In this document: piece by piece, positions 36,088-60,132 of the stretch
How positions within the stretch are numbered: position 1 is the stretch's first letter
How the letters are laid out: every line of letters starts with the position of its first letter
Source: Gemmatimonadales bacterium
GTDB lineage: Bacteria; Gemmatimonadota; Gemmatimonadetes; Gemmatimonadales; GWC2-71-9
Direction of reading: 5' to 3'
DNA: 64,000 bases
NCBI GenBank assembly: GCA_036274515.1
Contig: DASUFQ010000078.1
Location: 2,450 to 66,449 of the forward strand
Translations under genes and position numbers: made by a program
The notes under the pieces: model-generated
The model's database searches: none
Seen by the model: the letters and a program-made list of their open reading frames with translations, nothing else
What the model was told of the DNA's origin: nothing

Positions 36088-36111
36088 CGTCCGGATCGTT
36101 ATCTTTCCCCC

Positions 36112-42181: not shown

Positions 42182-42211
42182 GCGACCTTCCCAAATATTG
42201 TAACTTAAACT

Positions 42212-42240: not shown

Positions 42241-42246
42241 TGGCAT

Positions 42247-42418: not shown

Positions 42419-42430
42419 CCCCCTTGCTGC

Positions 42431-44605: not shown

Positions 44606-44989
44606 CTAGGGCTTGTCCCGCGAAAGGATGACCACCGCTCCCGCCACCCCGTGGGTGTGGGTGAGCGACAGGAGCAGCGTGCACGCCTCCGGCACCGTGG
44701 CGGCGAGTCCGTGCAGCGACAGCAGCGGCCGGCCGTCCGCCTCGCGCGACACCTCCAGGTCGTGCCACCCGACGGCGCGCATCCCCGGCAGCGATTGCAG
44801 CGCCTTGTACGCCGCTTCCTTGGCCGCCACCCGCACGGCAAAATGCGGCGCCGGGTCCGGCTGCCGCATCACGTATTCCCGTTCGCCGATGGTGAGGAAC
44901 CGGTCCAGCGCCCGCTCGCCGTAGCGGGACAGGATCGACCGCGCCCGCTCCACCTCCACCACATCCATGCCGACGCCGAGCACGCTCAC
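44606..44989 (-). CDS. acpS: holo-[acyl-carrier-protein] synthase
   Basis: GVGMDVVEVERA..., FAVRVAAKEAAYKAL, SLTHT. GTG start in a GTGA overlap with the upstream gene. Confidence 0.85.
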   Translation of the reverse strand: MSVLGVGMDVVEVERARSILSRYGERALDRFLTIGEREYVMRQPDPAPHFAVRVAAKEAAYKALQSLPGMRAVGWHDLEVSREADGRPLLSLHGLAATVPEACTLLLSLTHTHGVAGAVVILSRDKP

Positions 44990-45678
44990 AGGTGCCGCCA
45001 GAGCAGCTCCGCCACCGGACGGAGCGCGGCGGGAATGCGAAGGTATCCACCCAGCATGAGCCCTGCCCAGAGCGCCACGCCGTACACCACCGCCGTGGCG
45101 GTCCAGAGCGGCCAGCGCGCGCGGCGCCACGCCGCGATCGCGGCGATGTCGGCCTCCCACTCGGCGAGCTCCCAGGTGGCCGCGGCGCTGAGCCCCGACC
45201 AGGCGCTCTCCATCCGCCGTGCGGTGGCGAGCACCTGCGCGCTCCACGCCGGGCCGCTGGCGTGCTCGAGTTCCGCCGCGGCGCGAAGCATCGCCCCGGC
45301 GCTGGCACCGAGCCGCGCATGGATGGCCCGGTGTTCCTCGGGGGTGACGCGGTGCCGCTCCACCCGCCACTCCGGCATCCGCGCGGTCACCGCGGCCGCG
45401 GTGATCCGCTGGTCGAGCTGCCCGATGACCGCGGCCGCCGCCTCCTCGGTCGCCGCATCCCACATCGCCGCCCAGGCCGCCGGGGCCAGCGCCGCTCGCG
45501 CAGCCGAGTTGCTGCCGGCGTCGAGAGCCGCCCGCGCCTCCCCGGCGGCGCCGAGCAGCCGCGTCACCAGTGAGAGCCGGACCGGCGCGAGCAGGGCGTC
45601 GATGCCCTCCGGCGCCGCGGGGTGCACCAGCCTTCCCAGGGCGGGGCCGAGTTCGGGCAGCGTCACCGCGGCGCTCAT
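44986..45678 (-). CDS. Ala-rich hypothetical protein with a C-terminal TM anchor
   Basis: 230 aa from the ATG that overlaps the CYTH stop (ATGA). It ends in WPLWTATAVVYGVALWAGLMLGGYL...RHL. No recognisable family. Confidence 0.55.
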   Translation of the reverse strand: MSAAVTLPELGPALGRLVHPAAPEGIDALLAPVRLSLVTRLLGAAGEARAALDAGSNSAARAALAPAAWAAMWDAATEEAAAAVIGQLDQRITAAAVTARMPEWRVERHRVTPEEHRAIHARLGASAGAMLRAAAELEHASGPAWSAQVLATARRMESAWSGLSAAATWELAEWEADIAAIAAWRRARWPLWTATAVVYGVALWAGLMLGGYLRIPAALRPVAELLWRHL

Positions 45679-46289
45679 CGCCGTTCCCAGAGCGGGCGCT
45701 CGCCGCCCAGTTCGGCCACCGAGATGGCGGCGCGCTCCCCGGTCCGCTCCTCGAAGCGGCGGACGAACTCCACCAGCGGCTCCGGCTCGAACGCCGAGCG
45801 CGACAGCCCGCTCACGCCGATGGCGGCCTCGATCGCCTCCGGCGTGCCCTCCACCTCGACCAGGATGTCCATGCGGGGATACCACTCCAGCCGCACCTCG
45901 GCGCCATGCACCCGATACACCTCCACGAATCGATCGACCGACTTCGACACCGCGTACCCGAGCGACGCCAGCAGCGATCCCGCCCCCTCACCGCCGCCGG
46001 CGATGAAGAACTCCACCTCGTCACGCAGCTTGTACCCTTCCGCGCTGCGGCGGGTCGGGCCCTTCCACGCCATCTGGGCGCGCGGCTCTCCCTTGTCGGG
46101 CCGCCAGCTCCGCACCCTGAGGACCTCGCCCCTGTCGCTGAGCTCCCCGTCGCGATCGAGCAGCCGGTCCTCCATCAGCCCGCGGAACGACTCCTCCGCC
46201 CCCGACTCGACCAGGTGCCGGCGGAGGAGCGCCGCGTCGGGCACCACCGCCTTGACCTCCAGCTCCTGGTTCGGGCCGGCGGCGCTCAC
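45675..46289 (-). CDS. CYTH-domain protein (class IV adenylate cyclase / triphosphate tunnel metalloenzyme family)
   Basis: N-terminal ELEVK (ExExK signature). 204 aa, the size and pattern of CyaB-like CYTH proteins. Confidence 0.75.
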   Translation of the reverse strand: MSAAGPNQELEVKAVVPDAALLRRHLVESGAEESFRGLMEDRLLDRDGELSDRGEVLRVRSWRPDKGEPRAQMAWKGPTRRSAEGYKLRDEVEFFIAGGGEGAGSLLASLGYAVSKSVDRFVEVYRVHGAEVRLEWYPRMDILVEVEGTPEAIEAAIGVSGLSRSAFEPEPLVEFVRRFEERTGERAAISVAELGGERPLWERR

Positions 46290-46984
46290 CCGAGGATCGC
46301 CTCGAGCACGGCGTCGGTGTCGGAAAGGTCGTCGAACGCCGCGTACGCCCCGGCATCGATCAGCGCCCCCGCCGGGTAACTGCCGGTGGCCACGGCCACC
46401 GCGCGGGCGCCGATCCCCTGGCCGCAGGTCACGTCGGCCGGCGTGTCGCCGACGATCACGACCGCCTTCCCCGTCGGCACCCGGCCGAAGATCGGCGCCG
46501 CCCGCTCGGCCGCGATGGCGGGGAGGTCGGCGCGGCGCGCCGAGTCGGAACCGTAGGCGCCGACCCGGAAGCGCGCGGGATCGAGCCCGCCGGAACGGAG
46601 CTTGAGCCCCGCCCCCTGCACCAGGTTGCCCGTGAGGAGGCCGAGGACCACGTCGCTCCGCGCCTCGAGCCGGTCGAGGAGGGGGGAAACGCCGGGGAGC
46701 AGCCGGGTGGCGCCGGGGAACCGGCCGAGTTCCTCCTCGAGGAGCCCGACGTAGCGTCGGCAGACGTCGGCGATGGTGTCGGGGTCACCGGCGGAGGCGT
46801 CGCCCGCCGACTCGAGGAGCTCGCGCACGATTTGTGGGTCGGTCTTGCCGTCGAAGGCGAGGGTGCGCCAGGCATCGCCGTCGCCCAGCCGGTCAGCGAG
46901 GGCGGCGGTGATGGCGCGGCGCCCCGCCCCGGTGGTGAGCAGCAGCGTGCCGTCGATGTCGAAGAGGACCAGGACCCGTGTCAT
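46286..46984 (-). CDS. HAD-superfamily hydrolase (phosphoglycolate-phosphatase-like)
   Basis: VLFDIDGTLL motif I, LLTGN (motif II), VGDTPADV (motif IV). Confidence 0.85.
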   Translation of the reverse strand: MTRVLVLFDIDGTLLLTTGAGRRAITAALADRLGDGDAWRTLAFDGKTDPQIVRELLESAGDASAGDPDTIADVCRRYVGLLEEELGRFPGATRLLPGVSPLLDRLEARSDVVLGLLTGNLVQGAGLKLRSGGLDPARFRVGAYGSDSARRADLPAIAAERAAPIFGRVPTGKAVVIVGDTPADVTCGQGIGARAVAVATGSYPAGALIDAGAYAAFDDLSDTDAVLEAILG

Positions 46985-47775
46985 CCCGAGGCGGCCGCCC
47001 CCGGAATGCGCCGCGCCGTCACGTATTGCGCGTGCAGCTGGGCCGCCCGGCTGCCGGGCGCCCACGACTCGGTGAGCACCCCGCCGCACGCCACCGTCGA
47101 ATGCACCAGCATGTTCCCCGCGCCGATGAACGCCACGTGGGAAATGCCCCGGCCGGTCTCGCTGAAGAAGACGAGGTCACCGGGGAGCACGTCCGCCAGC
47201 GCCACCTCCTGGCCCTCGCGCGCCTGCGCCGAGGAATCCCTCGGCAGCCGGACCCCGCGCGCGGCGAAGGTCGTCTGCACCAGGCCGGAGCAGTCCACGC
47301 CGGCGTCGGTCACCCCGCCCCACTCGTACCGCACCCCCGCGAAGGTCCGGGCCGCCCACTCCTCCGCCGGCAGCACCGCCGCGCTCCGGCGCGCCTCGGC
47401 CTCCGGCAGGATGTGCCCCTGCACCAGCGGCCCCGAGGTGCCATCGGGGAGCCGGACCCGGCCGTGCTCCAGCACCGCGCGGGCCCGCACCGGCAGCCGG
47501 CGGCGTCCCGATCCCGTGTCGACCTCGGCGCCGACCGACCAGCCGGTGGCCGCGGCGCGCCACTCTTCCGCCTCGGCGTCGCCGCACTCGATGGCGTACC
47601 CGCGGTGGAGCCATCCCTCGTACCCGTCGACCTGCCCGCGCACCCGGAGCCACATCCCCTCGGCCGCGAGCACCGCCGCCGACTCGCCCAGCACGAGCTG
47701 CGACACCTGTTCGCTCCTGAGCGAGGCCTCCGCGTGGAGCGGCGCCACGGCGGCCCGCGCGATGACCGCGCTCAC
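46981..47775 (-). CDS. NlpC/P60 (C40) cell-wall peptidase with N-terminal SH3-like region
   Basis: YEWGG....GVDCSGLV catalytic Cys motif and HVAFI His. Confidence 0.85.
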   Translation of the reverse strand: MSAVIARAAVAPLHAEASLRSEQVSQLVLGESAAVLAAEGMWLRVRGQVDGYEGWLHRGYAIECGDAEAEEWRAAATGWSVGAEVDTGSGRRRLPVRARAVLEHGRVRLPDGTSGPLVQGHILPEAEARRSAAVLPAEEWAARTFAGVRYEWGGVTDAGVDCSGLVQTTFAARGVRLPRDSSAQAREGQEVALADVLPGDLVFFSETGRGISHVAFIGAGNMLVHSTVACGGVLTESWAPGSRAAQLHAQYVTARRIPGAAASG

Positions 47776-47951
47776 GCCAGGTCAGCCGCTGGCCGCTTGG
47801 CCTGGCAGGCGGCGCACCGGTCGATGCCGCGGAAGAAGCAGATGAGGCAGATGAAGGTGCCGCACCCGGCGCAGGGGTAGCCTTCCGACGCCCGCTCCTC
47901 GCGGCCGCAGGCCCGGCATTCCATCGCGTCGTGTTCGTGGAGTTCGGCCAT
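47772..47951 (-). CDS. 59-aa miniprotein with four CxxC pairs (predicted double zinc site)
   Basis: GGAGG lies 6 nt upstream of the ATG. MAELHEHDAMECRACGREERASEGYPCAGCGTFICLICFFRGIDRCAACQAKRPAADLA. Its stop overlaps the GTG of the NlpC/P60 gene (GTGA). It is part of a longer shadow ORF in the track. Confidence 0.6.
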   Translation of the reverse strand: MAELHEHDAMECRACGREERASEGYPCAGCGTFICLICFFRGIDRCAACQAKRPAADLA

Positions 47952-47962
47952 GGCGCCTCCGC

Positions 47963-49309
47963 TCAGATGTCCAGGTTCCAGCGCTTGATCTTGTTGATCA
48001 GCGTGGCGCGCGAGATGCCGAGCTCCTGCGCCGACCGCGTCCGGTTGCCGCCGTGATGCCGCAGCGTCCGCTCGATGTGCTGCCGTTCCAGCTCCTCGAG
48101 GGCGAGCGGCGTGTGCCGGCGGTCGCCGGGGCCGGGGCGCGCGCGGAACTCCCCGGGGAGGTGCTCGACGCCGACCACCGGCTGGCCGCGGCCCAGGATC
48201 AGCGCCCGTTCCAGCACGTTGCGCATCTCGCGCACGTTGCCCGGCCACGCGTAGCCCAGCAGCCGCTCCAGCGACTCCGCGCCGATCTCGGGAGGGCCAT
48301 CGGCCAGCTCGGTGCGGAGGTCGTGGAAGATGCGGTTGATGAGCGCCAGCCGGTCGTCACGGGAGCGGTCGCGCACCGCCGGGAGCCGCACCGGCATGAC
48401 GCTGAGGCGGTAGTAGAGGTCCTCGCGGAACCGCCCCTCCTCGACCTCGACGGCAAGGTCCTTGTTGGTGGCCGCGACCAGCCGCACGTCCACCGTGATT
48501 TCCCGGGTGCCCCCCAGCCGCCGGAAGGTCTTCGTTTCCAGCACCTTCAGCAGCTTCGGCTGCAGCTCGAGCGCGAGGTCGCCGATCTCGTCGAGGAAGA
48601 TCGTGCCGCGGTCGGCGATCTCGAAGAGCCCCTGCTTCCGGTCCTTGGCGTCGGTGAACGCCCCCTTCTCGTGCCCGAACAGCTCGGAATCGAGGAAGGT
48701 GGGGCTGAGCCCGGCGCAGTTGACCTCGACGAACGGCAGCCGCGCGCGGGGGCCGAGGTTGTGGATCATCCGCGCCACCCACCCCTTGCCGCTGCCGCTC
48801 TCGCCGAGGAGGAGGACGGTGGTCCGCTCGCTCTGGGCCAGGAGGGAAATCTGGTGGGCGAAGGCCTTCATCGTCGGTGAGCCGCCCAGCGAGTCGAGCC
48901 CCCGGCCCGGCGCGCCGTGGTTGACCAGCGCCTCGTTGACCCGGCGGAGCCGCGCCTTGTCGGCCACGCGGGCCGCGGCCGCCGAGAGGTGCGTCATGTC
49001 GACCGGCTTGGAGAGGAAGTTCTCCGCGCCGAGCTGCATGGCGCGCACCGCGGTGGCGACGTCGGTGTTGCCGGTCAGGAGGATGACGCTCGCGTCGCGC
49101 TCGCGCAGCCGTTCCAGCACCTCGAGGCCGTCCATCCCGGGGAGGTGAAGGTCGAGCATCACCACCTCGGGGTGCAGGCGATCGTAGGTGGCGAGCCCCG
49201 CCTCGCCGCTGAGCTCCCGGGTGACCTCCCACCCCAGCTGCTCGAAATAGTTGCCGATCGCACGGAGGACATCCGTGTCGTCGTCGATCAGCAGGACGGA
49301 ACCGATCAT
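47963..49309 (-). CDS. sigma-54-dependent response regulator (NtrC family)
   Basis: Receiver (VLLIDDD...MLDLHLPG), GESGSGKG Walker A, GAFTDA loop, C-terminal HTH (RSAQELGISRATLINKIKR). Confidence 0.9.
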   Translation of the reverse strand: MIGSVLLIDDDTDVLRAIGNYFEQLGWEVTRELSGEAGLATYDRLHPEVVMLDLHLPGMDGLEVLERLRERDASVILLTGNTDVATAVRAMQLGAENFLSKPVDMTHLSAAAARVADKARLRRVNEALVNHGAPGRGLDSLGGSPTMKAFAHQISLLAQSERTTVLLLGESGSGKGWVARMIHNLGPRARLPFVEVNCAGLSPTFLDSELFGHEKGAFTDAKDRKQGLFEIADRGTIFLDEIGDLALELQPKLLKVLETKTFRRLGGTREITVDVRLVAATNKDLAVEVEEGRFREDLYYRLSVMPVRLPAVRDRSRDDRLALINRIFHDLRTELADGPPEIGAESLERLLGYAWPGNVREMRNVLERALILGRGQPVVGVEHLPGEFRARPGPGDRRHTPLALEELERQHIERTLRHHGGNRTRSAQELGISRATLINKIKRWNLDI

Positions 49310-49322
49310 CGTGTCACCTCGC

Positions 49323-52300
49323 TCAGCGGCCGGGGTGCCGCGGGAGTTCGAACCAGATGCGCGCCCCGCCCCCCGGGCGGTTCTCGGCGCGGATGTCGCC
49401 GCCGTGCGCGCGCACGATGCCATGCGAAATCGACAGCCCCAGGCCGGTGCCCTCGCCCACGGGCTTGGTCGTGAAGAACGGCTCGAAGATGCGCGCCATC
49501 ACCTCCGGCGGAATGCCGGGGCCGGCATCGGCCGCCTCGAAACGGATGGCCTCGCCCACCGCCTCGATCCGGACGGTGCCGCTGCCTCCGGCCCCCCGCA
49601 TGGCGTGCGCGCCGTTCGACAGGAGGTTCAGCACCACCTGCCGGAGCTGGTCCGGGTCGGCGTGTGCCGCGGGGAGGTCGGCGGGGCACTCCACCGTCCA
49701 CCGCCCGAGGCGCTCCCCGCCGGCCGCAAGGACCTCCCGGGTGAGCGCTCCGAGGTCGAGCGCCGTGCGGCGGAGCGGGCGCTGCCGCGCGAAGGTCAGG
49801 AGGTCGGTCACGATCTGCGCCGCCCGCGTCGCTTCGCCCCGGATGCTCTCCACCACCCGGCGGCTGCCCTCGTCGAGCGGCTCGTCGAGGATCAGCGCCT
49901 GCGCCAGGGCGCTGATGCCGGCGAGCGGGTTGTTGAGCTCGTGCGCCACGCCGCTCACCAGCCGCCCGAGCGCCGCCAGCTTCTCGGTGTGCCCGAGCTG
50001 CTCCCGGAGCCGCTGCTCGTCGGTCACGTCGCGCGCGATTGCGAGCACCAGCGGCGCGCCGGCCTCCTCCCCCGCCGCCGGCACCGCCACCACCGCCGCC
50101 TCGCGCACTGCCCCGTCCGGCCGGCGCAGGTGCATCACAAACTCCCGCGGTTCGCCGGTGCGCACCGTGCGCAGCTGCTTCTGAACGTACTCCACCTCGG
50201 CGGGGACGAGGAAGTCCGCCAGCCGCGAGGCGGTGTCGAAGCCCGCCAGCGCGCGCGCGGAGGGATTGACCGAGCGGAGCGCCCCCGCCTCGTCCAGCGT
50301 GAAGATGGCGACCGGAACCGTGTCGAACAATGCCCGGTACCGGGCCTCCGACCGCCGGAGGTTGTCGGTGGCCACCCACTCGCGGGTCACGTCGCGCATC
50401 AGCGCCACCGCGCCCCCCGCCCCTTCCGCCACGCCGAGCGGCGCCAGCGACACCGCCAGCAGCCGTTCCCCCCCGTCGGGCCGGACCACCTGCGACTCGA
50501 ACCGGCGCGATCCCCCCGCGCCGGTGGTGTCCCCCGGCAGCAGTTCCGCCAGCGTGCGCCGGGTGAGCCCCTCGGCAGGGGTCCCGAAGAGATCCACCGC
50601 CGCCGCGTTCGCGTAGACCACCTGTCCCTGTTCGTCGGCCAGGACGATGGCGTCGTGCGCCGCCTCCACCACCAGCCGGAACCGCTGCTCGAGCCGGACC
50701 ACCTGGCTCACGTCGTCCACCGCCACCACATGGCCCCCCTCGGGGAGGGGCGTGGCCGTCACCACGAGCGACCGCCCGTCGAGCGACTCGATCAGGTCGG
50801 TCACGCCGGTGCCCGAACCGGCAGACAGGGTGAGCGGATCCTCGCGCGCGTCCCCCGCGTCCACGAAGACGGCGCGCAGCTGCCTCCCGACGATCTCCGT
50901 CACCGCCACCCCGGCCAGGTCGGCGATGAACCGGTTGGCCCGGACGATCAGGCCGTCGGCGTCCACGATGGCGAGCCCGGTCCCGGCGCCGTCGAACGCC
51001 GTCTGCCACTCGCGCCGGCTCCGGCTGACCTGGTCGAAGAGCCTGCTCTTGCCGATGGCGAGCGCCGCCTGGTCGGCAAAGGCCACGGCGAGCCGGCGTT
51101 CCTCGGACGAGTACTCCCGGGGCCGGTCGTGGAAGAAGGTCAGGACGCCGATCGTCTCGTTCGCGAAGACCAGCGGCAGGAAGGCGGCGGAGGCGTATCC
51201 CTCCGCCTTGGCGGCCGCCGCCATGGGCGACGACACATCCCGCCGGGCGTGCTCCGTGAAGACCGCCTCTCCCCGCAGGAGCGCCGGCGCCATCGGCAGC
51301 GCGTGAAACTGCCGCTCGAACGCCGCCGCGTACTCGGCGGACAGCCCGAGCCGGGCCAGGCACGACGCCGACGACTCGGCGCGCTGGAGCAGGAAGACCG
51401 CGCTCCGCTGGGCGCCGAAGACCCGCATCCCTTCCTCCGCCAGGAAGTGCGTGGTCCGGTCGGCGTCCTCGACCCCGGTGAGCGCATGCGCCACCCGGCC
51501 GAGGGCGTCGATCTGGTCGAGCCGGGTGAGCAGTTCGCCGCGGAGCCGGAGCCCGCTGATGGCCGCCGCCACCTGGTCCGCCACCGCCTGCAGCAGCTGC
51601 ATCGTGTCGGGACCGGGGGGCAGCCAGTCGGCGTCCGGGCCGGACACGGTCAGGACGCCGGTGAGGATCGAGCCGAACCGCATCGGCAGCATGGCGCCGG
51701 GGCGGTGCGGGCGGGGGCGCCGCGGGTCGGGAGCGGCCTCGGGCTCGCGTTCGAGGTCGGCGCTCGACCTCGCGGCGCCGCTCCGCGCCACGGCCATCTG
51801 CGGATCGCGCTCCCCCAGCACATCGCCGATCCGGTAGAGCCGGGCCTCGCTCCCCACCGAGCCCAGCACCACGAGCCCGGGCATCTGCTCGCCGGGCCGC
51901 CCGGCGATCATCGCGCCGGTGGCCTGGCCCACCGCCAGCGCCGCCTCGAGCCCGCGCTCGACGGTGGCGTCGAGGGTGCCGAGCGTCGAGAGATCGTGCG
52001 CCAGGGCGCGGAGCGCCTCGCTGCCGGCCAGCGCCGCCTCGGCCGCGACGGCGATGCGCGCGGCCTCGATGGCGATGGCGGCGTGCGCCGCGATGGCGGC
52101 GACCACCCGGACCGCCCCCTCGTCGTACGCCTCGGGCCGGTAGGATTGTGCCGAGAGCACGCCGATGAGGCGGTCGCCCAGCAGCATCGGCGCGTGGACC
52201 GCCGACTGGCTCAGCTCGCCGGTGCCGAAGACCGCGCCCCGCGTCGCCTGGACCGCCTCGGGGTGGTCGAGGGTAAGCACGCGGCGGTTCCGCACCACCC

Positions 52301-52556
52301 AGCTGGTGGGGCCCCGGCCGAGCGGCGCCTCGGACGACGCGATCCGCTCGCCGCGGTCGGTGTGGGCCACGAAGCGGAGCCGCTCGGTGGCGGGGTCCCA
52401 GAGCGCCACGTAGAAGGCGTCGCACTCCACCAGGCGGGCGACCTGTGCGTGCAGCACGTCGTAGAGCGCCGCGGGCTCGAGCAGCCGCGCAGTGGCCTCG
52501 GCGATGGCCGCCAGCACCTCGGTGGGGAGGGCGCCCCCGGGCTCCGCGCGGTTCAC
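49323..52556 (-). CDS. multi-sensor histidine kinase (several GAF and PAS domains + HisKA + HATPase_c)
   Basis: About 1077 aa with repeated GAF-like and PAS-like blocks. H-box GVAHELNNPL and G-boxes DAGPGI, GTGLGLS. GTG start in a GTGA overlap with the lipid-kinase stop. Confidence 0.9.
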   Translation of the reverse strand: MNRAEPGGALPTEVLAAIAEATARLLEPAALYDVLHAQVARLVECDAFYVALWDPATERLRFVAHTDRGERIASSEAPLGRGPTSWVVRNRRVLTLDHPEAVQATRGAVFGTGELSQSAVHAPMLLGDRLIGVLSAQSYRPEAYDEGAVRVVAAIAAHAAIAIEAARIAVAAEAALAGSEALRALAHDLSTLGTLDATVERGLEAALAVGQATGAMIAGRPGEQMPGLVVLGSVGSEARLYRIGDVLGERDPQMAVARSGAARSSADLEREPEAAPDPRRPRPHRPGAMLPMRFGSILTGVLTVSGPDADWLPPGPDTMQLLQAVADQVAAAISGLRLRGELLTRLDQIDALGRVAHALTGVEDADRTTHFLAEEGMRVFGAQRSAVFLLQRAESSASCLARLGLSAEYAAAFERQFHALPMAPALLRGEAVFTEHARRDVSSPMAAAAKAEGYASAAFLPLVFANETIGVLTFFHDRPREYSSEERRLAVAFADQAALAIGKSRLFDQVSRSRREWQTAFDGAGTGLAIVDADGLIVRANRFIADLAGVAVTEIVGRQLRAVFVDAGDAREDPLTLSAGSGTGVTDLIESLDGRSLVVTATPLPEGGHVVAVDDVSQVVRLEQRFRLVVEAAHDAIVLADEQGQVVYANAAAVDLFGTPAEGLTRRTLAELLPGDTTGAGGSRRFESQVVRPDGGERLLAVSLAPLGVAEGAGGAVALMRDVTREWVATDNLRRSEARYRALFDTVPVAIFTLDEAGALRSVNPSARALAGFDTASRLADFLVPAEVEYVQKQLRTVRTGEPREFVMHLRRPDGAVREAAVVAVPAAGEEAGAPLVLAIARDVTDEQRLREQLGHTEKLAALGRLVSGVAHELNNPLAGISALAQALILDEPLDEGSRRVVESIRGEATRAAQIVTDLLTFARQRPLRRTALDLGALTREVLAAGGERLGRWTVECPADLPAAHADPDQLRQVVLNLLSNGAHAMRGAGGSGTVRIEAVGEAIRFEAADAGPGIPPEVMARIFEPFFTTKPVGEGTGLGLSISHGIVRAHGGDIRAENRPGGGARIWFELPRHPGR

Positions 52557-53449
52557 GGCGACTCGGGCACCATGACGCGGATGGCCCCGGGCACCACGGT
52601 GGCGGTGAAGGGGGTGCTGCCGCCGAGGTCGCCGTCCATTTCCACCCGCGCGGGCGATTCGCACTCGACGTGGATCTCGCTGCCGCGGACGTGCCCGATC
52701 CGGGAGCCGGGGCCGTCGGCGCCACGGAGGAAGTGCCAGATGGCGTGCAGCCCCTCTGCCACGCCGTCGGCCCGCAGCACCAGCACGTCGAGCAGGCCGT
52801 CGTCAGGGCGAACGCCGTCGCCAAACCGGAGGAGCGGCGGCATGATCTCGGCGCAGTTGGCCACGAGGAGCATCGCGGCGTTGGCCTCGTATTCCACGCC
52901 GTCCACCCGGACGTGGTAGCGCAGGCTGCGCACCTCGCGGATGAGCCGGAGCGAGGTGGCGACGTACGCCCCCATCCCCCAGCGCTGCTTCAGGGTGGCG
53001 GGCGTCTCGGCCATGATCTGCGCGTCGAAGCCGGCGCCGCACGCCACGGCGAAGTAGTGGTGCTCGCCCGACGCGTCGAGGCGGCCGAGATCGAGGCGGC
53101 GCGAATGGCCCTTCACCAGCACCTCGGCGGCCCGCAGCGGCGAGAAGGGAATCCGCAGGTTGCCGGCCAGCAGGTTGCCGGTCCCGCCGGGGAGGAGGCC
53201 CAGCGCCACGTCGGTGCCGACCAGCGATGACGCGGCCTGCATCGTGGTTCCGTCGCCCCCGAAGACGGCGACGAGGTCCACCTGCGCCTCGGCGCCCTCG
53301 GTGGCCAGGCGGCGCGCATCCCCCGGGCCCCCGGTGGCCACGATCTCGACCTGCCAGCCGCCCCGGCGCAGGACGTCGCGCACGTCGGACACCGTCTTCG
53401 GCTTGGTGCGCGCCGCCGCGGGGTTGGTGATGACCAGGGCTCGTGGCAC
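52553..53449 (-). CDS. diacylglycerol-kinase-family lipid kinase (YegS/BmrU-like)
   Basis: ALVITNP..., VFGGDGT, LPGGTGN motifs. The GTG start lies 1 nt after the TamB stop. Confidence 0.85.
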   Translation of the reverse strand: MPRALVITNPAAARTKPKTVSDVRDVLRRGGWQVEIVATGGPGDARRLATEGAEAQVDLVAVFGGDGTTMQAASSLVGTDVALGLLPGGTGNLLAGNLRIPFSPLRAAEVLVKGHSRRLDLGRLDASGEHHYFAVACGAGFDAQIMAETPATLKQRWGMGAYVATSLRLIREVRSLRYHVRVDGVEYEANAAMLLVANCAEIMPPLLRFGDGVRPDDGLLDVLVLRADGVAEGLHAIWHFLRGADGPGSRIGHVRGSEIHVECESPARVEMDGDLGGSTPFTATVVPGAIRVMVPESP

Positions 53450-53450
53450 G

Positions 53451-56400
53451 CTAGAACTCCTGCTCCCAGAGGACGTCGAGGCCCGCCTGGTACCGGTCGT
53501 TGGTCGTGATCGGGGCGGTCTGCTGGTCGGCGGTGCACGAGGCCGAGGGCTCGAAACTGGCGAGGAAGCGGAACCCGCGCGCAAACCGGTACTCGAAGCT
53601 CGCGCCGATGTTCTTGTAGCTGGTGGCGCCGCCGGTTGTGCAGATGCCGGCGCTGAAGGTCAGGAAGGTCTTCCGGCCGACCTGCCACCCGGCCGCGAGC
53701 TGGGTGGCGGTGGACGAACCATAGGCGCCGCCGGCGGTGCCGGGCCGGAGTTCAATGTAGTCCACCGGCACCCGGAGGTCGGTGATCAGCGTGCGCTGGA
53801 GCTCGCTCGACACCGCGCCCGAGAGGTACGCCAGCCCGAGGTTGAGCGCCTGCTGCTGGTCGCCCGCCCCGCCGCCGGTCGTCTGGAGGTTCGAGGCCGG
53901 CCGCCGGAACATCAGGTACGACACCAGGGTGGTCTCGGAAATCGGCGGCAGGATCGTGGAGCTCAGCTGCAGCTCCGGCTCCAGCATGGTGCCGGTGATC
54001 TTGGCGATGACCGGGACATCCTGGCTCCCGTCGAGCGGACGGACGGTGTGCTCGGCCTCGATGTCGAGGTCGGCGTTCAGGTCGGGGGTCCCGAGGAACC
54101 GGACCTGGCCCTTGGTCACCTTGAAGTCGCGCCGCACCGGGCCGATGGCCAGGGTGTAGTTGCCGCGCAGGGCGTCGAGCCGGCCGTCCACCCGGTAGTC
54201 GCGGCGCAGCTTGTCCACCCGGACCTGGCCGCCGAGCTGGATGTTCGCCTCGTTGGAGCGGAGCCAGAAGGCGTCGCCCACCCGCACCGTCAGGTTGTCC
54301 ACCCGCAGCGAGTCGAGGAACCGGCTGCGGGTGCTGTACCCCCGCTGCAGCAGCCGCTGGAAGCGCTGGTCGAGGAGGTCCCGGAACTCCGGGTCGTCGA
54401 GGTCCACCACGTCCTTCGTCACCAGGTCGGCAAAGTACAGCGCGCCGCGGTTGGCGGTCATGGTGCCGGTCAGGGCGGGGCGGTCGAACGACCCCGTGAG
54501 CCGCATCCGGCCGCTGACGTCGAGGGTGAGGAAGTTGCGGATGTCGCTGGCCAGGAAGTCGGTGGCCACCAGCCGGAGGTTGAGCTCGGGGTTGGTCAGC
54601 GGCGTGAAGCGGACGCTCCCCGAGGCGTGCAGGGTTCCGTCGCTGGGGGCGCTCCGGAGCGCGAGCGAGTCCAAGGCCAGCGAGTCGTCCATGAAGCGGG
54701 CATGGCCATTGATGCTCGAATAGCGGATGCCGAGGGCCGGCACGGTGGCCGAGCCGCCGTGGATGTCGAGGAAGCCGGCCAGGCGCGGCGCCTCCCACGT
54801 CCCCTCGACCCGCACGTCGGCCGACAGGGTTCCCGACACCCGCCGCACCCGGGTGGTGAACGCCTCCAGCGTGCCGAGGTCGAGGCTGTCCGCCAGCGCG
54901 CGGATCGCCAGCGGGCCGTCCACCTGGCGGTTGGGCACGCCGGTGAGCGCCAGGTCGACCGGGAGCGCCACCTCGATGCCGAAGATCCGCTGTCCCGTCT
55001 TCCAGATGGAGAGGTTGCCCTCGAGCAGTCGCGACTCGTAGTGCAGGATCCCCTGGATGAACGGGGCGCGGAAATCGCCGAAGACGGCGTCACCGAGGGA
55101 GGCGGTGCCCTGGATGAGCGGCGCCTGCCGCGTGCCGGAGATCTCGAGGTCGGCCCCGATCGAGCCGGAGAGGCCGGCCGTGTCGCCGCGGAACATCCCC
55201 GAGACGTCGCGGAGGCTCAGGCCGTAGAGGTCGACATTGACCCGGCCCGGCGCGTCGCCAGGCAGGATCCCGGAGATGTTCACCGCCCCCGAGCCGTCCA
55301 CCGAGGCGAGCCGGAGCGGGGAGAGCACCATGCCGGAGTCGGTCCGCTCCGCCACCGCCGGGGCGCGGAGCCGCCACGGCCGGGCGCTCGAGCCGACGGA
55401 GAGCGAATCGATCGCGAACGACCGGGTCTCGCCTTCACTCGCGTAGCGGCCGGTGGCGGCGAAGAACCCCCCTTCCCCCGCCTCGAACGAGCCGGTCCAT
55501 TGGAGGGAGTCCACCCACCCCACCACGCCCGCGCGGACGTCGGTCGTCACCAGCGAGCCGCTCGCCACCGTATCGGCCAGCGTCTCGACGCTCAGGTGCG
55601 GACGGTCCCCGCCCACCCAGCCGAAGGTGGCGGAGAGGTGGTGCATCCGGGCCCCGCGGAAGGCGACCTGGCTGGCGGTGGCGAAGCCGGACGCGACCAG
55701 CGAATCGAGGGATCCGGCGAGCGAAAAGTCCAGCCGGCCGAAGCCCTCGAGCGCCCCCGTGGTGTCGGGCTCGAGCTCGAGCCGGGCAACCACCAGCGAG
55801 TCGAAGGCGCCGAGGCTGTCGAGCCGCGCGGTGAGTTCCATCTGCCCCTCGTGCGGGGCCGCCCAGCCGAGGGTGCCTGCCCCGCTCAGCGAACCGGCGT
55901 GCCACGCCACCTCGAGGGTGTCCACGATGAGCACGCTGTCCCGGACGCCGAGCCGCGCGGTGGCGGTGTCGATCCGGAAGGCGTCGAAGCGTCCGGGTCC
56001 GAGCGCGCCGGCGATGGTCCCTTCCGGGGCGCGAAGGGTGTCGATCGAGCCGACGACCAGGACGCGGCCCGCCAGGTCGGACGTCGGACCCTCGCCGCGC
56101 AGGGAGTGGAGGTCGAGCCGTCGGAACTCGATGTCGAGGGAATCGCCCCCCCAGTGCGGCGCGCTGAGGGTGGCGGGGCCGTGGGCGCGGATCGCGCCGA
56201 CCTGCCCGCTGACGTCGGCATCGAGGTCGAGGCGCTCGAGGGTGCCCGCCATCCGCACCTGCCCGCGCAGCGCGCCGAGCGCCGTGAGGGTGGGGTACCC
56301 GGCGCGGATCCCCTCGAAGGAGAGCGAGTCGAGGGTCAGGTCGCCGTCGAAGGCGGTGAGCGGGGTGCGGGTGTCGAGGCGGATCCACCCGGACAGCGCG

Positions 56401-57863
56401 CTCGGCGGTCGGGTGCCGTCGACGTGGCGCATGTCGCCGGTGAAGAGCACGTTCTGCCAGGGGCCCTCGAGCGTCCCCACCAGGCTGGCGCGCCCCTGCA
56501 GGGTGATGGTCGGGCTGAGACGCTGCACCGTGCGCAGGTCGATGTCCGACGACGCCAGCGAGAAGGCCCGGAAGCCGAGGCCGTCGGCGCCGCCGGTGAG
56601 GATCCGCCCCTCGCCTTGCAGCCGGCTGGTGGCGCCGCCGGGGATGTCGATGTCGGTCACGCTGACGTCGGCGGTGAGCGCCAGGTCGGTCAGGAACCCG
56701 GTGCCGGCGAGGCGCCCCGACAGGGTGCCGCGGATCGGCAGGGTGTCGAGATAGGGCCGCGCCGCCTCGAGGTCCAGCCGGTCGATTGTCAGGTCCATGT
56801 TCCGGACCCCAAGGCCGCGGCGCAGGTCCGTCAGCACCACGAGCGCGCCGTCCACCGCGGTGCTGTCGTTCCCGAGGTGCAGGTCGGCCAGGGTGATCGT
56901 GGTGCGGCTGGCGTCCTGCGACTTGGCGGTGACGGTGGCGCGCCCCGCGAGCGCGGGGAAGTCCGGCGAGATCCACCGCAGGTCCACCAGGTCGAGCCGG
57001 GTGAACTGCACGCCGAAGTCGAGGAGGAGGGGGCCCTCGGGAAAGGTGAGGACTCCCGCCCCGGTGAACCTCGAGCCGGGAAGCGCGCCGCGCGAGATCT
57101 CGAAGATGACGCTGTCCCCCGGCACCCGCACGCGCCCGCGCGCCTGCAGCAGGCGCACCGCCGGGTCGCTCACCCGGACGCCGAGGGTGTCGATCTGCAG
57201 CGAGAGCGGATCGCGGCCGGGGGTGCTGACCGTCAGGCGGTCGAGCCCCATGGTCAGGGAATCGAACCGGCGGACCTGCTCCAGTCCTTCGACCCCCTCG
57301 ACGATCACCCGGCCGGGAAACGCCCGCTCCGCGGCCAGCGCCGCCTCCCGCTGCCGCGGCGTGGCGCCGGCGGGTGGATCCCACGGGACGCGCAGGGTGA
57401 GGGTGCCCCGGCTGATGCGCAAGTCGTGGAACTCGATGAGCGGCGGCCGCGCCGTGCCGCTGCCCTCCCCGAGGTGCAGCACCTCCTCGTAATTCATCCG
57501 CCCGCTGCGGCGGCGCACGAGGTCGATGACCGGCGCCTCGGCCCGCACCTGCTGGAAGACGAACCGCCCGGCGAGGAGATTGGGGAGCCGGTAGCTGACG
57601 TCGAGCCGGGGGAAGGTGGCCACCGCCTTGCCCGCGCTGTCGGTCAGCACCACGCCGCGAAGCGAGAGGGAGGTCAGGAAGGTGCCCGAGACCTCGCCGA
57701 TGGTGAGGTTGCCGCGGAAGACCCGGTCGGAGAGCTCGGTCACCGTGCGCGCAAGGAGCCGCCGGCCGGGGGAGGCAACGGTCAGGGCCGCCAGGAGCCC
57801 TGCGACGAGGGCGAGCGTCCCGAAGCCCACCACGAAGACGATGTGCGCAAGGCGGCGCCGCAT
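53451..57863 (-). CDS. tamB: translocation and assembly module protein TamB (AsmA-like, DUF490 C-terminus)
   Basis: 1470 aa with an N-terminal TM anchor, a long repetitive beta-rich body and a conserved C-terminal block ending ...DVLWEQEF. It overlaps the upstream Omp85 gene by 1 nt. Confidence 0.85.
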   Translation of the reverse strand: MRRRLAHIVFVVGFGTLALVAGLLAALTVASPGRRLLARTVTELSDRVFRGNLTIGEVSGTFLTSLSLRGVVLTDSAGKAVATFPRLDVSYRLPNLLAGRFVFQQVRAEAPVIDLVRRRSGRMNYEEVLHLGEGSGTARPPLIEFHDLRISRGTLTLRVPWDPPAGATPRQREAALAAERAFPGRVIVEGVEGLEQVRRFDSLTMGLDRLTVSTPGRDPLSLQIDTLGVRVSDPAVRLLQARGRVRVPGDSVIFEISRGALPGSRFTGAGVLTFPEGPLLLDFGVQFTRLDLVDLRWISPDFPALAGRATVTAKSQDASRTTITLADLHLGNDSTAVDGALVVLTDLRRGLGVRNMDLTIDRLDLEAARPYLDTLPIRGTLSGRLAGTGFLTDLALTADVSVTDIDIPGGATSRLQGEGRILTGGADGLGFRAFSLASSDIDLRTVQRLSPTITLQGRASLVGTLEGPWQNVLFTGDMRHVDGTRPPSALSGWIRLDTRTPLTAFDGDLTLDSLSFEGIRAGYPTLTALGALRGQVRMAGTLERLDLDADVSGQVGAIRAHGPATLSAPHWGGDSLDIEFRRLDLHSLRGEGPTSDLAGRVLVVGSIDTLRAPEGTIAGALGPGRFDAFRIDTATARLGVRDSVLIVDTLEVAWHAGSLSGAGTLGWAAPHEGQMELTARLDSLGAFDSLVVARLELEPDTTGALEGFGRLDFSLAGSLDSLVASGFATASQVAFRGARMHHLSATFGWVGGDRPHLSVETLADTVASGSLVTTDVRAGVVGWVDSLQWTGSFEAGEGGFFAATGRYASEGETRSFAIDSLSVGSSARPWRLRAPAVAERTDSGMVLSPLRLASVDGSGAVNISGILPGDAPGRVNVDLYGLSLRDVSGMFRGDTAGLSGSIGADLEISGTRQAPLIQGTASLGDAVFGDFRAPFIQGILHYESRLLEGNLSIWKTGQRIFGIEVALPVDLALTGVPNRQVDGPLAIRALADSLDLGTLEAFTTRVRRVSGTLSADVRVEGTWEAPRLAGFLDIHGGSATVPALGIRYSSINGHARFMDDSLALDSLALRSAPSDGTLHASGSVRFTPLTNPELNLRLVATDFLASDIRNFLTLDVSGRMRLTGSFDRPALTGTMTANRGALYFADLVTKDVVDLDDPEFRDLLDQRFQRLLQRGYSTRSRFLDSLRVDNLTVRVGDAFWLRSNEANIQLGGQVRVDKLRRDYRVDGRLDALRGNYTLAIGPVRRDFKVTKGQVRFLGTPDLNADLDIEAEHTVRPLDGSQDVPVIAKITGTMLEPELQLSSTILPPISETTLVSYLMFRRPASNLQTTGGGAGDQQQALNLGLAYLSGAVSSELQRTLITDLRVPVDYIELRPGTAGGAYGSSTATQLAAGWQVGRKTFLTFSAGICTTGGATSYKNIGASFEYRFARGFRFLASFEPSASCTADQQTAPITTNDRYQAGLDVLWEQEF

Positions 57864-59977
57864 CAGAACGCCTGCCCCACGGCAAAATGGAAGACGAACC
57901 GGTCGGGATTCCCGGGCGGGAGGTAGGAGTCGCGGATCTTGTAGACCGCGTCCTGGTGGCTGAGGTAGAGCGCTCCCGCCTGCTGCGGGTAGCCGTTGTA
58001 CCCCACGTCGAGCCGCACCGGGCCAAGGGGGGTGACCAGCCGGAGGCCGACGCCGGGGGTCACCCGGATCCGCGGTTCGTTCTCGTAGCGGTCCCAGAGC
58101 ACGCCGGCGTCCACGAAGGCCGCCCAGCGGAAGATCCGGCCCAGGAACGGCGAGGGCATCCGCAGTTCGAGGTTCCCGACGCCCAGCATGTTGCCGCCGA
58201 TTGGCGAGAAGCGCAGCGCGCCCGGCGGGATCGGGGTCCCGGGGAGGTTGGTGGTGTCCACCGGCACGCTGTCGTTGACGATCAGGTAGTTGATCGGGCC
58301 CAGGCCGTTCAGCTGGTAGCCCCGCACGTCATTGGGGCCGCCGGCGTAGAACCGGTTGGCGGGCGGGACGTACCGGGTCTCCTCGGTGCTGTTGAACGAG
58401 GTGAGGGGCGCCCAGATGAACCCGCCGCGGAGGCGGAGGCTGAGCACCGACTGGCGCGACACCGTGCGGTACCAGGCCCGGTCCGCCACGAACAGGAAGA
58501 ATTGCTGGCTCTCGCTCGAGCCGAGGACCTGGGCGCTCACCGTCGCCTGGAAGGTGGTGCGCGAACCGCGGGTGGGATCCACCGGGTTGTCGAGCGACGG
58601 GAAGGTGGCGGAGGCGCCGAGGGCGCCGAGCCCCTGGTCGGAGCTCAGGCGCTCGATGTCGGTGGCGCTGCAGACGTCGAGCGAGACGCAGAAGCTCGCC
58701 GGGCTCGCCTGGGTGCTGCCGTAGGTGTACGCGTAGGTGAGCGAGAGCTTGGCCTGGCGCAGCGTCTCGCGGCTCAGGGTGAGGCCGGCGCCCAGCTCCT
58801 GGCGGAGGTACACCAGGTAGTCGGAGCGGCGGTCGGCGAAGATCGTGGTCGTCAGGGTGTTGTGCGGCGAGATGAACGCCGGCCGCCGCAGCGAGACTGC
58901 GAGGCTGTAGTTGACGACCCCTGAGCCGAGGGTGTCCGGCTTGAGCTGCTGGCAGAGGAAGCCGTCCTCCATGCCCCAGTCCGTGGGGGTTCCCACGCCG
59001 ATCTTGGAAAGCCGCCCGCTGATGTCGAGGATGCGGCCGCCGCCACCGAAATCCCGGAAGGTGATGCCGGCGCCGACGCGGAGGCAGTCCTCGGTGGCGT
59101 AGCCCACGCTGCCGCGCGCCCGGCGCGGCTTGCTCTCCGCCACCCGCACCGAGAGCGGGACCGAGTCCGACGCCGGGTCGTACGTGGTGCTGTCGATCCC
59201 CACCGCGGCAAAGCTGAACAGCTCCGAGCGGTAGAGGTTGCGCTGGCTTCGGTAGAGGTCCTCCTGCGAGAAGAGCTGGCCGGGCCGGGTGCCCAGCAGC
59301 TTGCGGACGACCTCCGGGGACACCCGCTTCGTTCCCGTCACGGTGATGGAGCTGATGTCCGAGAGCGGCCCCGGCTGGAGATCGATCGCCGCGTCGGCCA
59401 CCAGCTCGGCCTTGTCCCGCTCGAAGCTCTGGAAGGCGAGCGCGTCGGGATAGCCGCGGTCGCGGAGGCGCCGGACCAGGGTGTCGGCGGTGGCATCGAG
59501 CAGGATGCGATTGAACGGGTCCCCGGGGCGGAGCGGCAGGTCGCGCGCGATGACCTCGGGCTTCGCCACGGAGTCGAGTCCGAGGATCTGCAGCGAGTCG
59601 AGCCGGACCGGCTCGCCCTCCACGATGAGGAAGGTGATGTAGATGTCCTTCGGCGTCCGCCGGACGAGGGTGTCGACCTCCGCGTTCAGGTACCCGCTCT
59701 TGCGGTACAGCAGCGTGATCCGGAGGATGTCACGGTCGAACTCCACCTGGTCGAAGTAACGCTTTTCCCCGAGGCCCATCCAGCGGACCAGGCCGGAGCG
59801 CGCGAACCACGCCGAATTGGTGGTGGCGATGGCGGCCGAGAGCTGCGTCGCGTCGAGCGCGTGGTTCCCCTTGAAGGACAGGCCACGGATGACCAGTTCC
59901 TCGTCCTGAGCCGCGAGCGGCTGGACGATCCACAACCCCACGACCATCGCCAGGAGCGCGCGCCCCGGCACGCTCAC
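57863..59977 (-). CDS. tamA: Omp85-family outer-membrane protein (TamA/BamA-like, POTRA + barrel)
   Basis: POTRA-like repeats (IRGLSFKGNHAL...), a barrel with RGY-type motifs (NDVRGYQLNGLGP), ending ...FAVGQAF. The start is uncertain (GTG 59977 or ATG 59947). Confidence 0.85.
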   Translation of the reverse strand: MSVPGRALLAMVVGLWIVQPLAAQDEELVIRGLSFKGNHALDATQLSAAIATTNSAWFARSGLVRWMGLGEKRYFDQVEFDRDILRITLLYRKSGYLNAEVDTLVRRTPKDIYITFLIVEGEPVRLDSLQILGLDSVAKPEVIARDLPLRPGDPFNRILLDATADTLVRRLRDRGYPDALAFQSFERDKAELVADAAIDLQPGPLSDISSITVTGTKRVSPEVVRKLLGTRPGQLFSQEDLYRSQRNLYRSELFSFAAVGIDSTTYDPASDSVPLSVRVAESKPRRARGSVGYATEDCLRVGAGITFRDFGGGGRILDISGRLSKIGVGTPTDWGMEDGFLCQQLKPDTLGSGVVNYSLAVSLRRPAFISPHNTLTTTIFADRRSDYLVYLRQELGAGLTLSRETLRQAKLSLTYAYTYGSTQASPASFCVSLDVCSATDIERLSSDQGLGALGASATFPSLDNPVDPTRGSRTTFQATVSAQVLGSSESQQFFLFVADRAWYRTVSRQSVLSLRLRGGFIWAPLTSFNSTEETRYVPPANRFYAGGPNDVRGYQLNGLGPINYLIVNDSVPVDTTNLPGTPIPPGALRFSPIGGNMLGVGNLELRMPSPFLGRIFRWAAFVDAGVLWDRYENEPRIRVTPGVGLRLVTPLGPVRLDVGYNGYPQQAGALYLSHQDAVYKIRDSYLPPGNPDRFVFHFAVGQAF

Positions 59978-60132
59978 GCGGCGTCCCCCGCGGAGCCGGG
60001 GGCGCTCGTAATTGACGGCATGCTGTAAGATGCCTAGTTTCTTCACCTTACGCCACGGCGGGGGCGCTTCTGGCTCCCCCCTCCTTCCGGTGCGCGGACC
60101 ACCCGTCTCCAACCCGCACGGACCACCTGCCG

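Follow-up and report, generated by a model that had tools for sequence, protein, structure and literature searches.

A recurrent, modular gene neighborhood around tamB and a YegS-type lipid kinase gene in Gemmatimonadota

Current work on TamB and its AsmA-like relatives treats them as conduits that carry phospholipids to the outer membrane. In Escherichia coli, the third gene, after tamA-tamB (ytfM-ytfN), is ytfP. The same species carries a heterogeneous housekeeping “uber-operon,” rnc-era-recO-pdxJ-acpS, with acpS at its tail. We know of no physiological role for lipid kinases of the YegS type. Operons that join a bamA-like gene to tamB are common outside Proteobacteria and Bacteroidota (Heinz et al. 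2015, PMC4494059). Here we analyze a stretch of 64,000 nucleotides (nt) from a Gemmatimonadales bacterium (GenBank assembly GCA_036274515.1, contig DASUFQ010000078.1, positions 2,450 to 66,449), hereafter called the window. Positions 44606-59977 of the window hold a chain of 11 minus-strand genes that begins with a tamA-like gene, tamB, and a lipid kinase gene (lipK) and ends with acpS. With moderate confidence, we consider this chain to be a real, anciently conserved, modular, and probably cotranscribed Gemmatimonadota neighborhood (an “uber-operon”) rather than a fixed 11-gene envelope module. The part worth following is the phylum-wide adjacency of tamB, lipK, and a gene for a small eight-cysteine protein (the miniprotein); the tight junctions between the genes are ordinary for this genome.

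All 11 open reading frames (ORFs) translate without internal stops in this DNA, whose G+C content is 70-75% throughout the window (72% overall). The chain opens with a 1-nt overlap between the tamA-like gene and tamB (TGATG) and a 1-nt gap between tamB and lipK, followed by a 4-nt overlap (GTGA) between lipK and a histidine kinase (HK) gene. Gaps of 13 nt and 11 nt then separate the HK gene from a gene for an NtrC-type regulator and the regulator gene from the miniprotein gene, the latter gap (GCGGAGGCGCC) having GGAGG inside. Each of the last five junctions, which lead from the miniprotein gene through genes for an NlpC/P60 protein, a HAD phosphatase, a CYTH protein, and an alanine-rich helical protein (here called TA) to acpS, is a 4-nt overlap. 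Overall, there are six 4-nt overlaps, one 1-nt overlap, and gaps of 1, 11, and 13 nt, which gives a range of −4 to +13 nt. As a second check of the gene models, we wrote a simple codon-usage gene caller and trained it on the window; it independently recovered all 10 junctions. The first-pass annotation of this DNA, which had listed the same 11 genes with junctions of 13 nt or less, is thus confirmed in this respect by both translation and gene calling. Its domain assignments were likewise confirmed using Pfam and NCBIfam, with the CYTH assignment being weak for the single protein and secured via its orthologues. Start ambiguity is limited to the tamA-like gene (GTG at 59977 versus 60046), and the start at 59977 yields a good signal peptide and agrees with the orthologues.

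To place the chain in a comparative setting, we used 109 related loci anchored on TamB: 20 from genomes, 79 from metagenomes, and 10 places in deeper lineages, 9 of which had DNA. All proteins of the window were mapped onto these loci. A search with LipK listed 120 homologues, all of them at least 60% identical and so too close to inform on deep linkage, and the TamB of a distant locus (L083) was used instead. Gene content, junctions, and the pattern of what is kept and what varies can be read directly from the resulting set. The tamA-like gene lies immediately upstream of tamB in all relatives, and LipK is encoded downstream of TamB in 72 of the 74 relatives with enough sequence, down to a TamB identity of 25-28%. 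The miniprotein is present in 45 of 47 loci.

Close relatives (TamB identity of at least 58%) keep the full gene order, including both flanks. In the broader clade (TamB identity of 40-47%), a reversed SBP_bac_5 gene is followed by the order TamA-TamB-LipK, a spacer, and then regulator-miniprotein-(NlpC)-HAD-(CYTH)-TA-AcpS, with parentheses marking genes that are not always present. A gap of about 100-200 nt follows AcpS, and then come a gene for an FTR1-cytochrome c fusion and a reversed lgt gene. The junctions from the regulator gene to acpS are mostly 4-nt overlaps in the orthologous loci, even where NlpC or CYTH is missing.

More distant loci retain a shorter version of this order. L100 (TamB identity of 34%), flanked by Pyr_redox and peptidase S13 genes, has the order TamA-TamB-LipK-miniprotein-HAD-TA-AcpS, and both L101 (34%) and the P0148 locus share this flank and this order with an S58 peptidase added after the miniprotein. 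L103 (28%), next to a reversed SBP_bac_5 gene, carries TamA-TamB-LipK-HK-regulator-miniprotein-S58-NlpC and, further along, HAD-CYTH-M14. L104 (28%), which follows a gene for a GGDEF response regulator, carries TamA-TamB-LipK-HK-miniprotein-S58 and, further along, EamA-HAD-CYTH, a 253-amino-acid (aa) protein, and AcpS. L106 (33%) has an HD response regulator between LipK and the regulator, followed by the miniprotein and an M1 peptidase. L108 (28%), again next to a reversed SBP_bac_5 gene, has the order TamA-TamB-HK. Three loci that we term type II (L102, L105, and L109; TamB identity of 25-28%) are flanked by genes for TsaD and a metallophosphatase and show TamA-TamB-(CLC)-M48-LipK-abhydrolase, and L107 (24%) has no LipK.

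A scaffold of tamAB-lipK-miniprotein, continued further along by HAD-TA-acpS, therefore occurs under at least three upstream flanks (SBP_bac_5; Pyr_redox with or without S13; a GGDEF response regulator) and several downstream flanks, and it is kept down to 28-34% TamB identity. The variable slots are occupied elsewhere by S58, M1, and M14 peptidases, EamA, and the HD-domain response regulator. The first-pass annotation had named dispersal of these genes in relatives as one finding that would count against it. Because the scaffold outlasts at least three upstream flanks, the genes cannot be called dispersed; the neighborhood recurs in about 100 Gemmatimonadota loci, also with other flanks and at TamB identities of 28-34%.

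The first-pass annotation also took the tight junctions as a sign of a module rather than a chance neighborhood, and this argument is not borne out. Outside the chain, 22 of the 32 same-strand junctions in the window (69%) are also 13 nt or less, and 14 of the 32 are overlaps. A run of 10 such junctions has a probability of about 0.02 if junctions are independent, yet another 10 junctions in a row, each of 17 nt or less, occur in this window at 22050-29744 on the plus strand. This control chain has 11 genes, 10 of them with a Pfam assignment (yebC, ruvC, ruvA, ruvB, queA, tgt, yajC, def, fmt, and thiE), and its junctions measure 10, −4, −4, 17, −11, −4, −1, −1, −1, and −4 nt. A 57-aa ORF lies between ruvA and ruvB, at 23927-24100. 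The control genes serve recombination, tRNA modification, secretion, translation, and thiamine synthesis. Given that the yebC-to-thiE chain is equally tight, overlap-linked chains in this genome evidently join unrelated housekeeping genes. Short or overlapping junctions generally favor cotranscription and translational coupling, and the junction pattern of the tamB chain supports these two features and not a shared function. There is a wider caution here, as runs of overlapping genes are the default in compact high-GC genomes, and calling a functional module requires comparative evidence.

The TamA-like protein (57863-59977, minus strand; 704 aa) has a signal peptide, an Omp85 domain (Pfam, 1e-41), and three POTRA matches, and its N-terminal region of about 330 aa has room for about four POTRA domains. 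In NCBIfam it reaches neither the BamA cut-off of 297 (221 bits) nor the TamA cut-off of 625 (98 bits), and its matches to BamA (5e-21) and TamA (2.5e-20) in the PDB are about equal. The label “TamA-like” given in the first-pass annotation is sound as far as an Omp85 protein with POTRA domains beside tamB is concerned, and these scores do not allow the protein to be placed with TamA, TamL, or BamA in particular. TamB (53451-57863, minus strand; 1470 aa) is securely identified (PF04357, 2e-44, 152.7 bits versus a cut-off of 22.4). Its N-terminal membrane anchor comprises hydrophobic residues 8-26, and its start codon overlaps the tamA stop codon.

LipK (52553-53449, minus strand; 298 aa) is a soluble lipid kinase of the YegS/BmrU/Rv2252 type with DAGK_cat and YegS_C domains and a GGDGT motif. 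It scores above the TIGR00147 cut-off (133.1 versus 118.65 bits) and below every equivalog cut-off (YegS, DgkB-type, and MamU). A search of one literature library found nothing linking TamB with YegS-type kinases, and a search on TamB and Gemmatimonadetes returned nothing pertinent. TamB (lipid transport or outer-membrane biogenesis) and the lipid kinase, perhaps together with the miniprotein, form the best-founded candidate for a functional core of the chain. The phylum-wide, flank-independent adjacency of tamB and lipK is a specific lead for experiments in a phylum that has received little study. The adjoining miniprotein adds to this lead, as it is unannotated and the best conserved protein of the block.

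The miniprotein gene (47772-47951, minus strand; 59 aa) has its own GGAGG ribosome-binding site. Its product carries the pattern C-x2-C-x11-C-x2-C-x4-C-x2-C-x7-C-x2-C with constant spacing; among 49 aligned sequences, seven of the cysteines are invariant and the eighth is present in at least 90%. The consensus reads EHDxMxCRxCGxEERASEGYPCxxCGTFxCxxCxxRGVxxCxxC. Miniprotein identity remains at 60-71% where TamB has fallen to 28-34%, LipK to 33-51%, and HAD to 51-60%. The database holds 966 clusters of this protein at 90% identity, all of them “hypothetical” and none with a Pfam domain, and every cluster with a source name comes from Gemmatimonadales. A profile search of 1.84 billion representatives (50% clustering) returned 71 small proteins only, with no informative domain fusions. 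The AlphaFold model has a mean predicted local distance difference test (pLDDT) score of 82, and the top PDB matches in a fold search are all cross-brace fingers of the PHD, RING, ZZ, or C1 type. No named family matched significantly: the best Foldseek E value was 0.13, Pfam C1_2 scored 18.9 bits (cut-off 26), and NCBIfam gave no match. From the cysteine spacing, which suits this class, and from the model, the miniprotein is predicted to be a binuclear cross-brace zinc finger, and it appears to represent a new small family that is apparently limited to Gemmatimonadota. The idea that the miniprotein works solely with the regulator was weighed and rejected, since four loci without a regulator gene (L100, L101, L104, and the P0148 locus) still encode the miniprotein; the two are therefore not tied together.

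The signaling genes are a changeable part of the chain. The HK (49323-52556, minus strand; 1077 aa) has three GAF, three PAS, HisKA, and HATPase domains (Pfam) and no membrane segment, which makes it cytoplasmic. It is a variable element, being present in 24 and absent in 35 of the 59 loci with enough sequence, and it also occurs in the deep lineages L103, L104, and L108. Among eight relatives (L001, L002, L008, L013, L021, L023, L042, and L082), the HK gains or loses GAF/PAS units and ranges from about 800 to 1080 aa, and the regulator there is 90-95% identical. The regulator (47963-49309, minus strand; 448 aa) consists of a receiver, an AAA+ Sigma54_activat domain, and an HTH_8 domain (Pfam), with Walker motifs GESGSGK and IFLDE. 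It is 82-95% identical in relatives whose TamB proteins are 45-78% identical, and it is absent in the four loci that have the miniprotein without it. The first-pass annotation described a dedicated multi-sensor two-component system within one module, and these absences of the HK and of the regulator speak against such a system as a fixed part of the chain.

The sigma-54 contact loop of the regulator reads GAFTDA rather than GAFTGA. Among 52 orthologues, 45 share GAFTDA, five that are more distant carry GAFAEA, GAVPEA, GAFVEA, GAHPTA, or GAFIEA, and two lack a recognizable loop motif. Published views differ on whether GAFTDA permits activation of sigma-54: in D. vulgaris it is considered to do so (PMC4641369), and for VfmH the question was left undecided (PMC10714721). 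A paralogous NtrC-type regulator with the canonical GAFTGA lies at 179-1585 on the plus strand and is 40% identical. The first-pass annotation had proposed searching for sigma-54 promoters to find the targets of the regulator. Within the 64-kb window, no enrichment was observed: TGGCAC-N5-TTGC with at most 2 mismatches matched 39 times versus 50 expected, none of the matches was convincing, and there was no intergenic −24/−12 match with at most 1 mismatch.

In 34 relatives without the HK, the LipK gene directly adjoins the regulator gene at a junction that could be called, and a spacer of 13-261 nt separates the two. HK-less relatives in the range L027-L093 (for example, L034, L041, and L048) carry in this spacer the motif GTGACTAATTTYTGGGGG, followed by a C-rich complement. 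In one subclade (L055, L057, L060, and L061), the spacer instead shows the inverted repeats TTTGACAG...CTGTCAAA. No known promoter consensus was identified in the spacer motif. Its conservation argues for a second transcription start at this place in HK-less relatives, and we regard it as a hint of a start before the regulator in those relatives.

The remaining five genes are mostly enzymes. The NlpC/P60 protein (46981-47775, minus strand; 264 aa) has SH3b and NlpC/P60 regions (PF00877, 1.8e-21) with a DCSG motif, and its best full-length PDB matches are 3PVQ and 3NPF (both DPP VI) and 3H41. It has no signal peptide or N-terminal hydrophobic segment, and its maximum KD19 value of 1.35 is internal. 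YkfC/DPP VI enzymes cleave free murein peptides. Because the protein lacks a signal peptide and is nearest to this group, cytoplasmic recycling is the likelier role. We therefore interpret the NlpC/P60 protein as a YkfC/DPP VI-type enzyme that more likely recycles murein peptides in the cytoplasm than cleaves the wall. The “peptidoglycan hydrolase” of the first-pass annotation is correct as to the domain; the export signal that such a role would call for is missing. The gene is a variable element, absent in L069, L094, L095, L098, L100, and L101. The peptidase genes directly after the miniprotein gene differ by lineage, with S58/DmpA-like, NlpC/P60, and M1 types in L101, L103, L104, L106, and the P0148 locus. 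In L103, an M14 peptidase is encoded further along, after CYTH. These varied peptidases may point to a peptide-processing theme.

The HAD phosphatase (46286-46984, minus strand; 232 aa) was recognized by its DxDGT motif and by Pfam, with weak, sub-threshold NCBIfam matches. Its gene was found in 34 of 37 relatives for which the sequence suffices and also in L100, L101, L103, and L104. The CYTH protein, or triphosphate-tunnel metalloenzyme (45675-46289, minus strand; 204 aa), has an ExExK motif (ELEVK, residues 9-13). As a single protein it falls below the Pfam cut-off (0.003, 17.8 bits; cut-off 23.2), and 8 of 13 orthologues match Pfam CYTH (best 8e-7). The orthologue profile matches the triphosphate-tunnel enzymes Saci_0718 (1e-9) and PH1819 (3e-9). 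The CYTH gene, found in 20 of 32 relatives, is again a variable element. TA (44986-45678, minus strand; 230 aa) is alanine-rich and all-helical, with a C-terminal hydrophobic segment at about residues 191-210. It has no Pfam, NCBIfam, or PDB match, including with an 18-sequence profile, and its single-sequence structure model is unusable (pLDDT 48). Genes for TA orthologues lie directly upstream of acpS, with a 4-nt overlap in most loci, L100 and L101 included. AcpS (44606-44989, minus strand; 127 aa) is identified as the holo-ACP synthase, a group I 4'-phosphopantetheinyl transferase, by PF01648 and by TIGR00516 (66.6 bits; cut-off 59.8).

A divergent intergenic region of 155 nt (59978-60132) separates the tamA-like gene from the SBP_bac_5 gene on the plus strand. 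It contains a conserved noncoding block of about 47 nt on the minus strand (about 60057-60011; GTGGCGTAAGGTGAAGAAACTAGGCATCTTACAGCATGCCGTCAAT) with the pattern GCGTAAG..AAACTA..CTTACAG..GCC-GTCAAT and an inverted repeat, GTAAG-N18-CTTAC. Alignment of 34 relatives shows the block to be conserved as far as a TamA identity of 46%. Just before the tamA start, a C5/G5 hairpin (60003-59985), which includes the likely Shine-Dalgarno sequence, is also present in close relatives. No sigma-70, sigma-54, or other known promoter consensus was found in the block. Together, the block and the hairpin are probably the promoter/operator and leader of the chain and are the best candidate for this role that the sequence offers.

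Within the chain (44606-59977), no terminator-like site was found on the coding strand by a consensus scan, which covered 42-61 kb. The combined sigma-70 and terminator scan of the same region gave one promoter-like match, located outside the chain. Rfam and tRNA scans of the window gave no match. On the downstream side, a gene for a cytochrome c-FTR1 iron permease fusion (42431-44551, minus strand; 706 aa; Pfam) begins 54 nt after acpS, with no terminator in the gap. Many relatives also have this gene after acpS, at a distance of 57-200 nt, and it is possibly a twelfth cotranscribed gene. Beyond it, a gap of 338 nt (42093-42430) separates FTR1-cytochrome c from lgt, which is convergent with it. 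This gap holds the single sigma-70-like match of the 19-kb scan (42226-42197, minus strand) and two weak −24/−12-like matches, and it has no Rfam match. Further away in the window, the G+C content falls to 0.65 at 34-36 kb and the GC skew is strongly negative at 36-38 kb. The region 34000-38200 includes stretches of about 1.1 kb and about 0.8 kb without a confidently called gene, also with no tRNA or Rfam match.

According to the reading that we favor, a constant scaffold consists of the tamA-like/tamB pair, the soluble YegS-type lipid kinase, and the eight-cysteine miniprotein and, further along, HAD, the C-terminally anchored helical protein, and AcpS. The slot between lipK and the miniprotein gene holds signaling genes (here HK and the NtrC-type regulator; elsewhere either one alone, an HD response regulator, or nothing), and the slot between the miniprotein gene and HAD holds cytoplasmic peptidases (here the YkfC-type NlpC/P60; elsewhere S58 or M1). 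In the lineage of the window, the HK fills what is a spacer of 13-261 nt in most relatives, so that all chain junctions are 13 nt or less. Transcription would probably proceed from the conserved region upstream of tamA, with translational coupling via the 1- and 4-nt overlaps. Genes outside the core of tamB, lipK, and perhaps the miniprotein gene may be passengers, like acpS in rnc-era-recO-pdxJ-acpS. Cotranscription, coupling, and any shared function are what we infer from the sequence comparisons.

Several considerations weigh against this reading. The sample consists mostly of one order and of metagenome fragments, with counts unweighted by taxonomy, and orthologue starts were chosen near the starts used in the window, which biases the junction figures toward agreement. 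Promoters inside coding sequence may exist, and the HK may have been gained or lost, in either direction, given its presence in the three deep lineages named above. Across a large part of the clade that was sampled, synteny extends to SBP_bac_5 on the upstream side and to FTR1-cytochrome c and lgt on the downstream side. Since the flanks are conserved too, part of the conservation may be plain synteny inertia. Selection for linkage of the genes is likely, not proven.

The first-pass annotation saw one envelope-homeostasis module in all 11 genes, and in its full form this reading has the HK and the sigma-54 regulator sensing the state of the envelope or its lipids and controlling lipid/protein export by TamAB, lipid phosphorylation, activation of acyl carrier protein, and peptidoglycan turnover. 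The recurrence of the linkage in deep lineages with different flanks fits this proposal. So does the presence in most lineages of a signaling gene at or next to the locus, be it an HK, an NtrC-type or HD regulator, or a GGDEF response regulator upstream. A common theme can be seen in the lipid proteins (TamB, LipK, and AcpS) and the murein-peptide enzymes (NlpC/P60; S58 and M14 elsewhere), and the junctions of the window offer neither a coding-strand terminator-like site nor room for a promoter. However, the HK is missing from 35 of 59 loci, the regulator is missing from L100, L101, L104, and the P0148 locus, and NlpC and CYTH are dispensable. HK-less relatives have a conserved spacer with a motif between lipK and the regulator gene, the window has no sigma-54 promoter (39 matches versus 50 expected), and the loop of the regulator is GAFTDA and becomes degenerate in distant orthologues (GAVPEA and GAHPTA). 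Moreover, the NlpC/P60 protein has no signal peptide, HAD, CYTH, and TA have no demonstrable envelope role, and this genome also packs unrelated genes into chains of the same tightness. What stands of the module is thus its recurrent linkage and the lack of an internal terminator-like site, whereas the fixed 11-gene unit does not stand, as the HK, regulator, NlpC/P60, and CYTH genes vary. We consider a single envelope operon rather doubtful.

One could also suppose that the genes have no functional link at all, and that compaction and slow rearrangement brought several unrelated small operons end to end on one strand, namely tamAB-lipK, HK-regulator, and a set of housekeeping genes with acpS last. 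Most other same-strand junctions (69%) are as tight, the yebC-ruvCAB-queA-tgt-yajC-def-fmt-thiE chain behaves alike, the flanking genes are conserved as well, and the type II lineages L102, L105, and L109 keep tamAB-lipK without the miniprotein, HAD, or AcpS nearby. This explanation is nevertheless unlikely, because the scaffold survives at least three upstream and several downstream flanks down to 28-34% TamB identity, and because insertions and losses inside the block leave it together. At the other extreme, tamA-tamB-lipK and the miniprotein gene might form a Gemmatimonadota-specific unit in which the kinase phosphorylates a lipid handled by TamB and the miniprotein serves the kinase as a subunit for lipid or protein docking or for regulation. 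Such a unit would link the modification of phospholipids with transport by TamB to the outer membrane, and the supply or recycling of lipid precursors would fall to HAD, the membrane-anchored protein, and AcpS. Eukaryotic diacylglycerol kinases combine C1 and DAGK_cat domains, and the docking-subunit idea is based on the resemblance to this architecture of a C1/ZZ-like finger beside a DAGK_cat kinase. We regard this unit as a long shot. If it were true, YegS-family kinases would gain a physiological role and a new small zinc-finger family would be defined.

Comparison with known systems, from the general to the specific, brings out what is particular to the modular neighborhood that we favor. 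Like rnc-era-recO-pdxJ-acpS and the yebC-to-thiE chain, it is a conserved, codirectional, tightly packed set of functionally unrelated genes, with acpS at the tail as in the E. coli operon; it differs from both in gene content, in starting with envelope genes, and in including signaling genes. Its HK and regulator resemble NtrB/NtrC-type systems (AtoSC, ZraSR, and GlrKR) in pairing a HisKA/HATPase kinase with an adjacent receiver-AAA+-HTH_8 regulator, which is most similar in NCBIfam to AtoC and NtrC, below their cut-offs. In contrast to these systems, the loop is GAFTDA (degenerate in distant orthologues), the kinase is a soluble protein missing from many loci, and there is no sigma-54 promoter in the vicinity. 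The NlpC/P60 protein shares SH3b and NlpC/P60 domains and the catalytic cysteine of the DCSG motif with the gamma-D-glutamyl-L-diamino-acid endopeptidases of the YkfC/DPP VI group (3H41, 3PVQ, and 3NPF), although it has a single detectable SH3b region.

The miniprotein has the eight-ligand spacing of cross-brace (treble-clef) PHD, RING, ZZ, and C1 fingers, which are its top fold matches and to which it has a weak Pfam match (C1_2). It differs from them in being a stand-alone 59-aa bacterial protein with all-cysteine ligands and no significant match. LipK corresponds to the YegS/BmrU/Rv2252 (DgkB-like) kinases in its DAGK_cat and YegS_C domains, its GGDGT motif, and its score above the TIGR00147 cut-off, whereas a conserved gene position immediately behind tamB is not known to have been described for that family. 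Finally, the head of the chain agrees with the proteobacterial tamA-tamB (ytfM-ytfN) and the bamA-tamB or tamL-tamB operons found elsewhere (PMC4494059) in having an Omp85 gene directly before tamB with a stop/start overlap. TamB itself agrees with the tamA-tamB systems in its N-terminal anchor and C-terminal PF04357 domain. The difference is that here, phylum-wide, a YegS-type lipid kinase gene and further genes come next.

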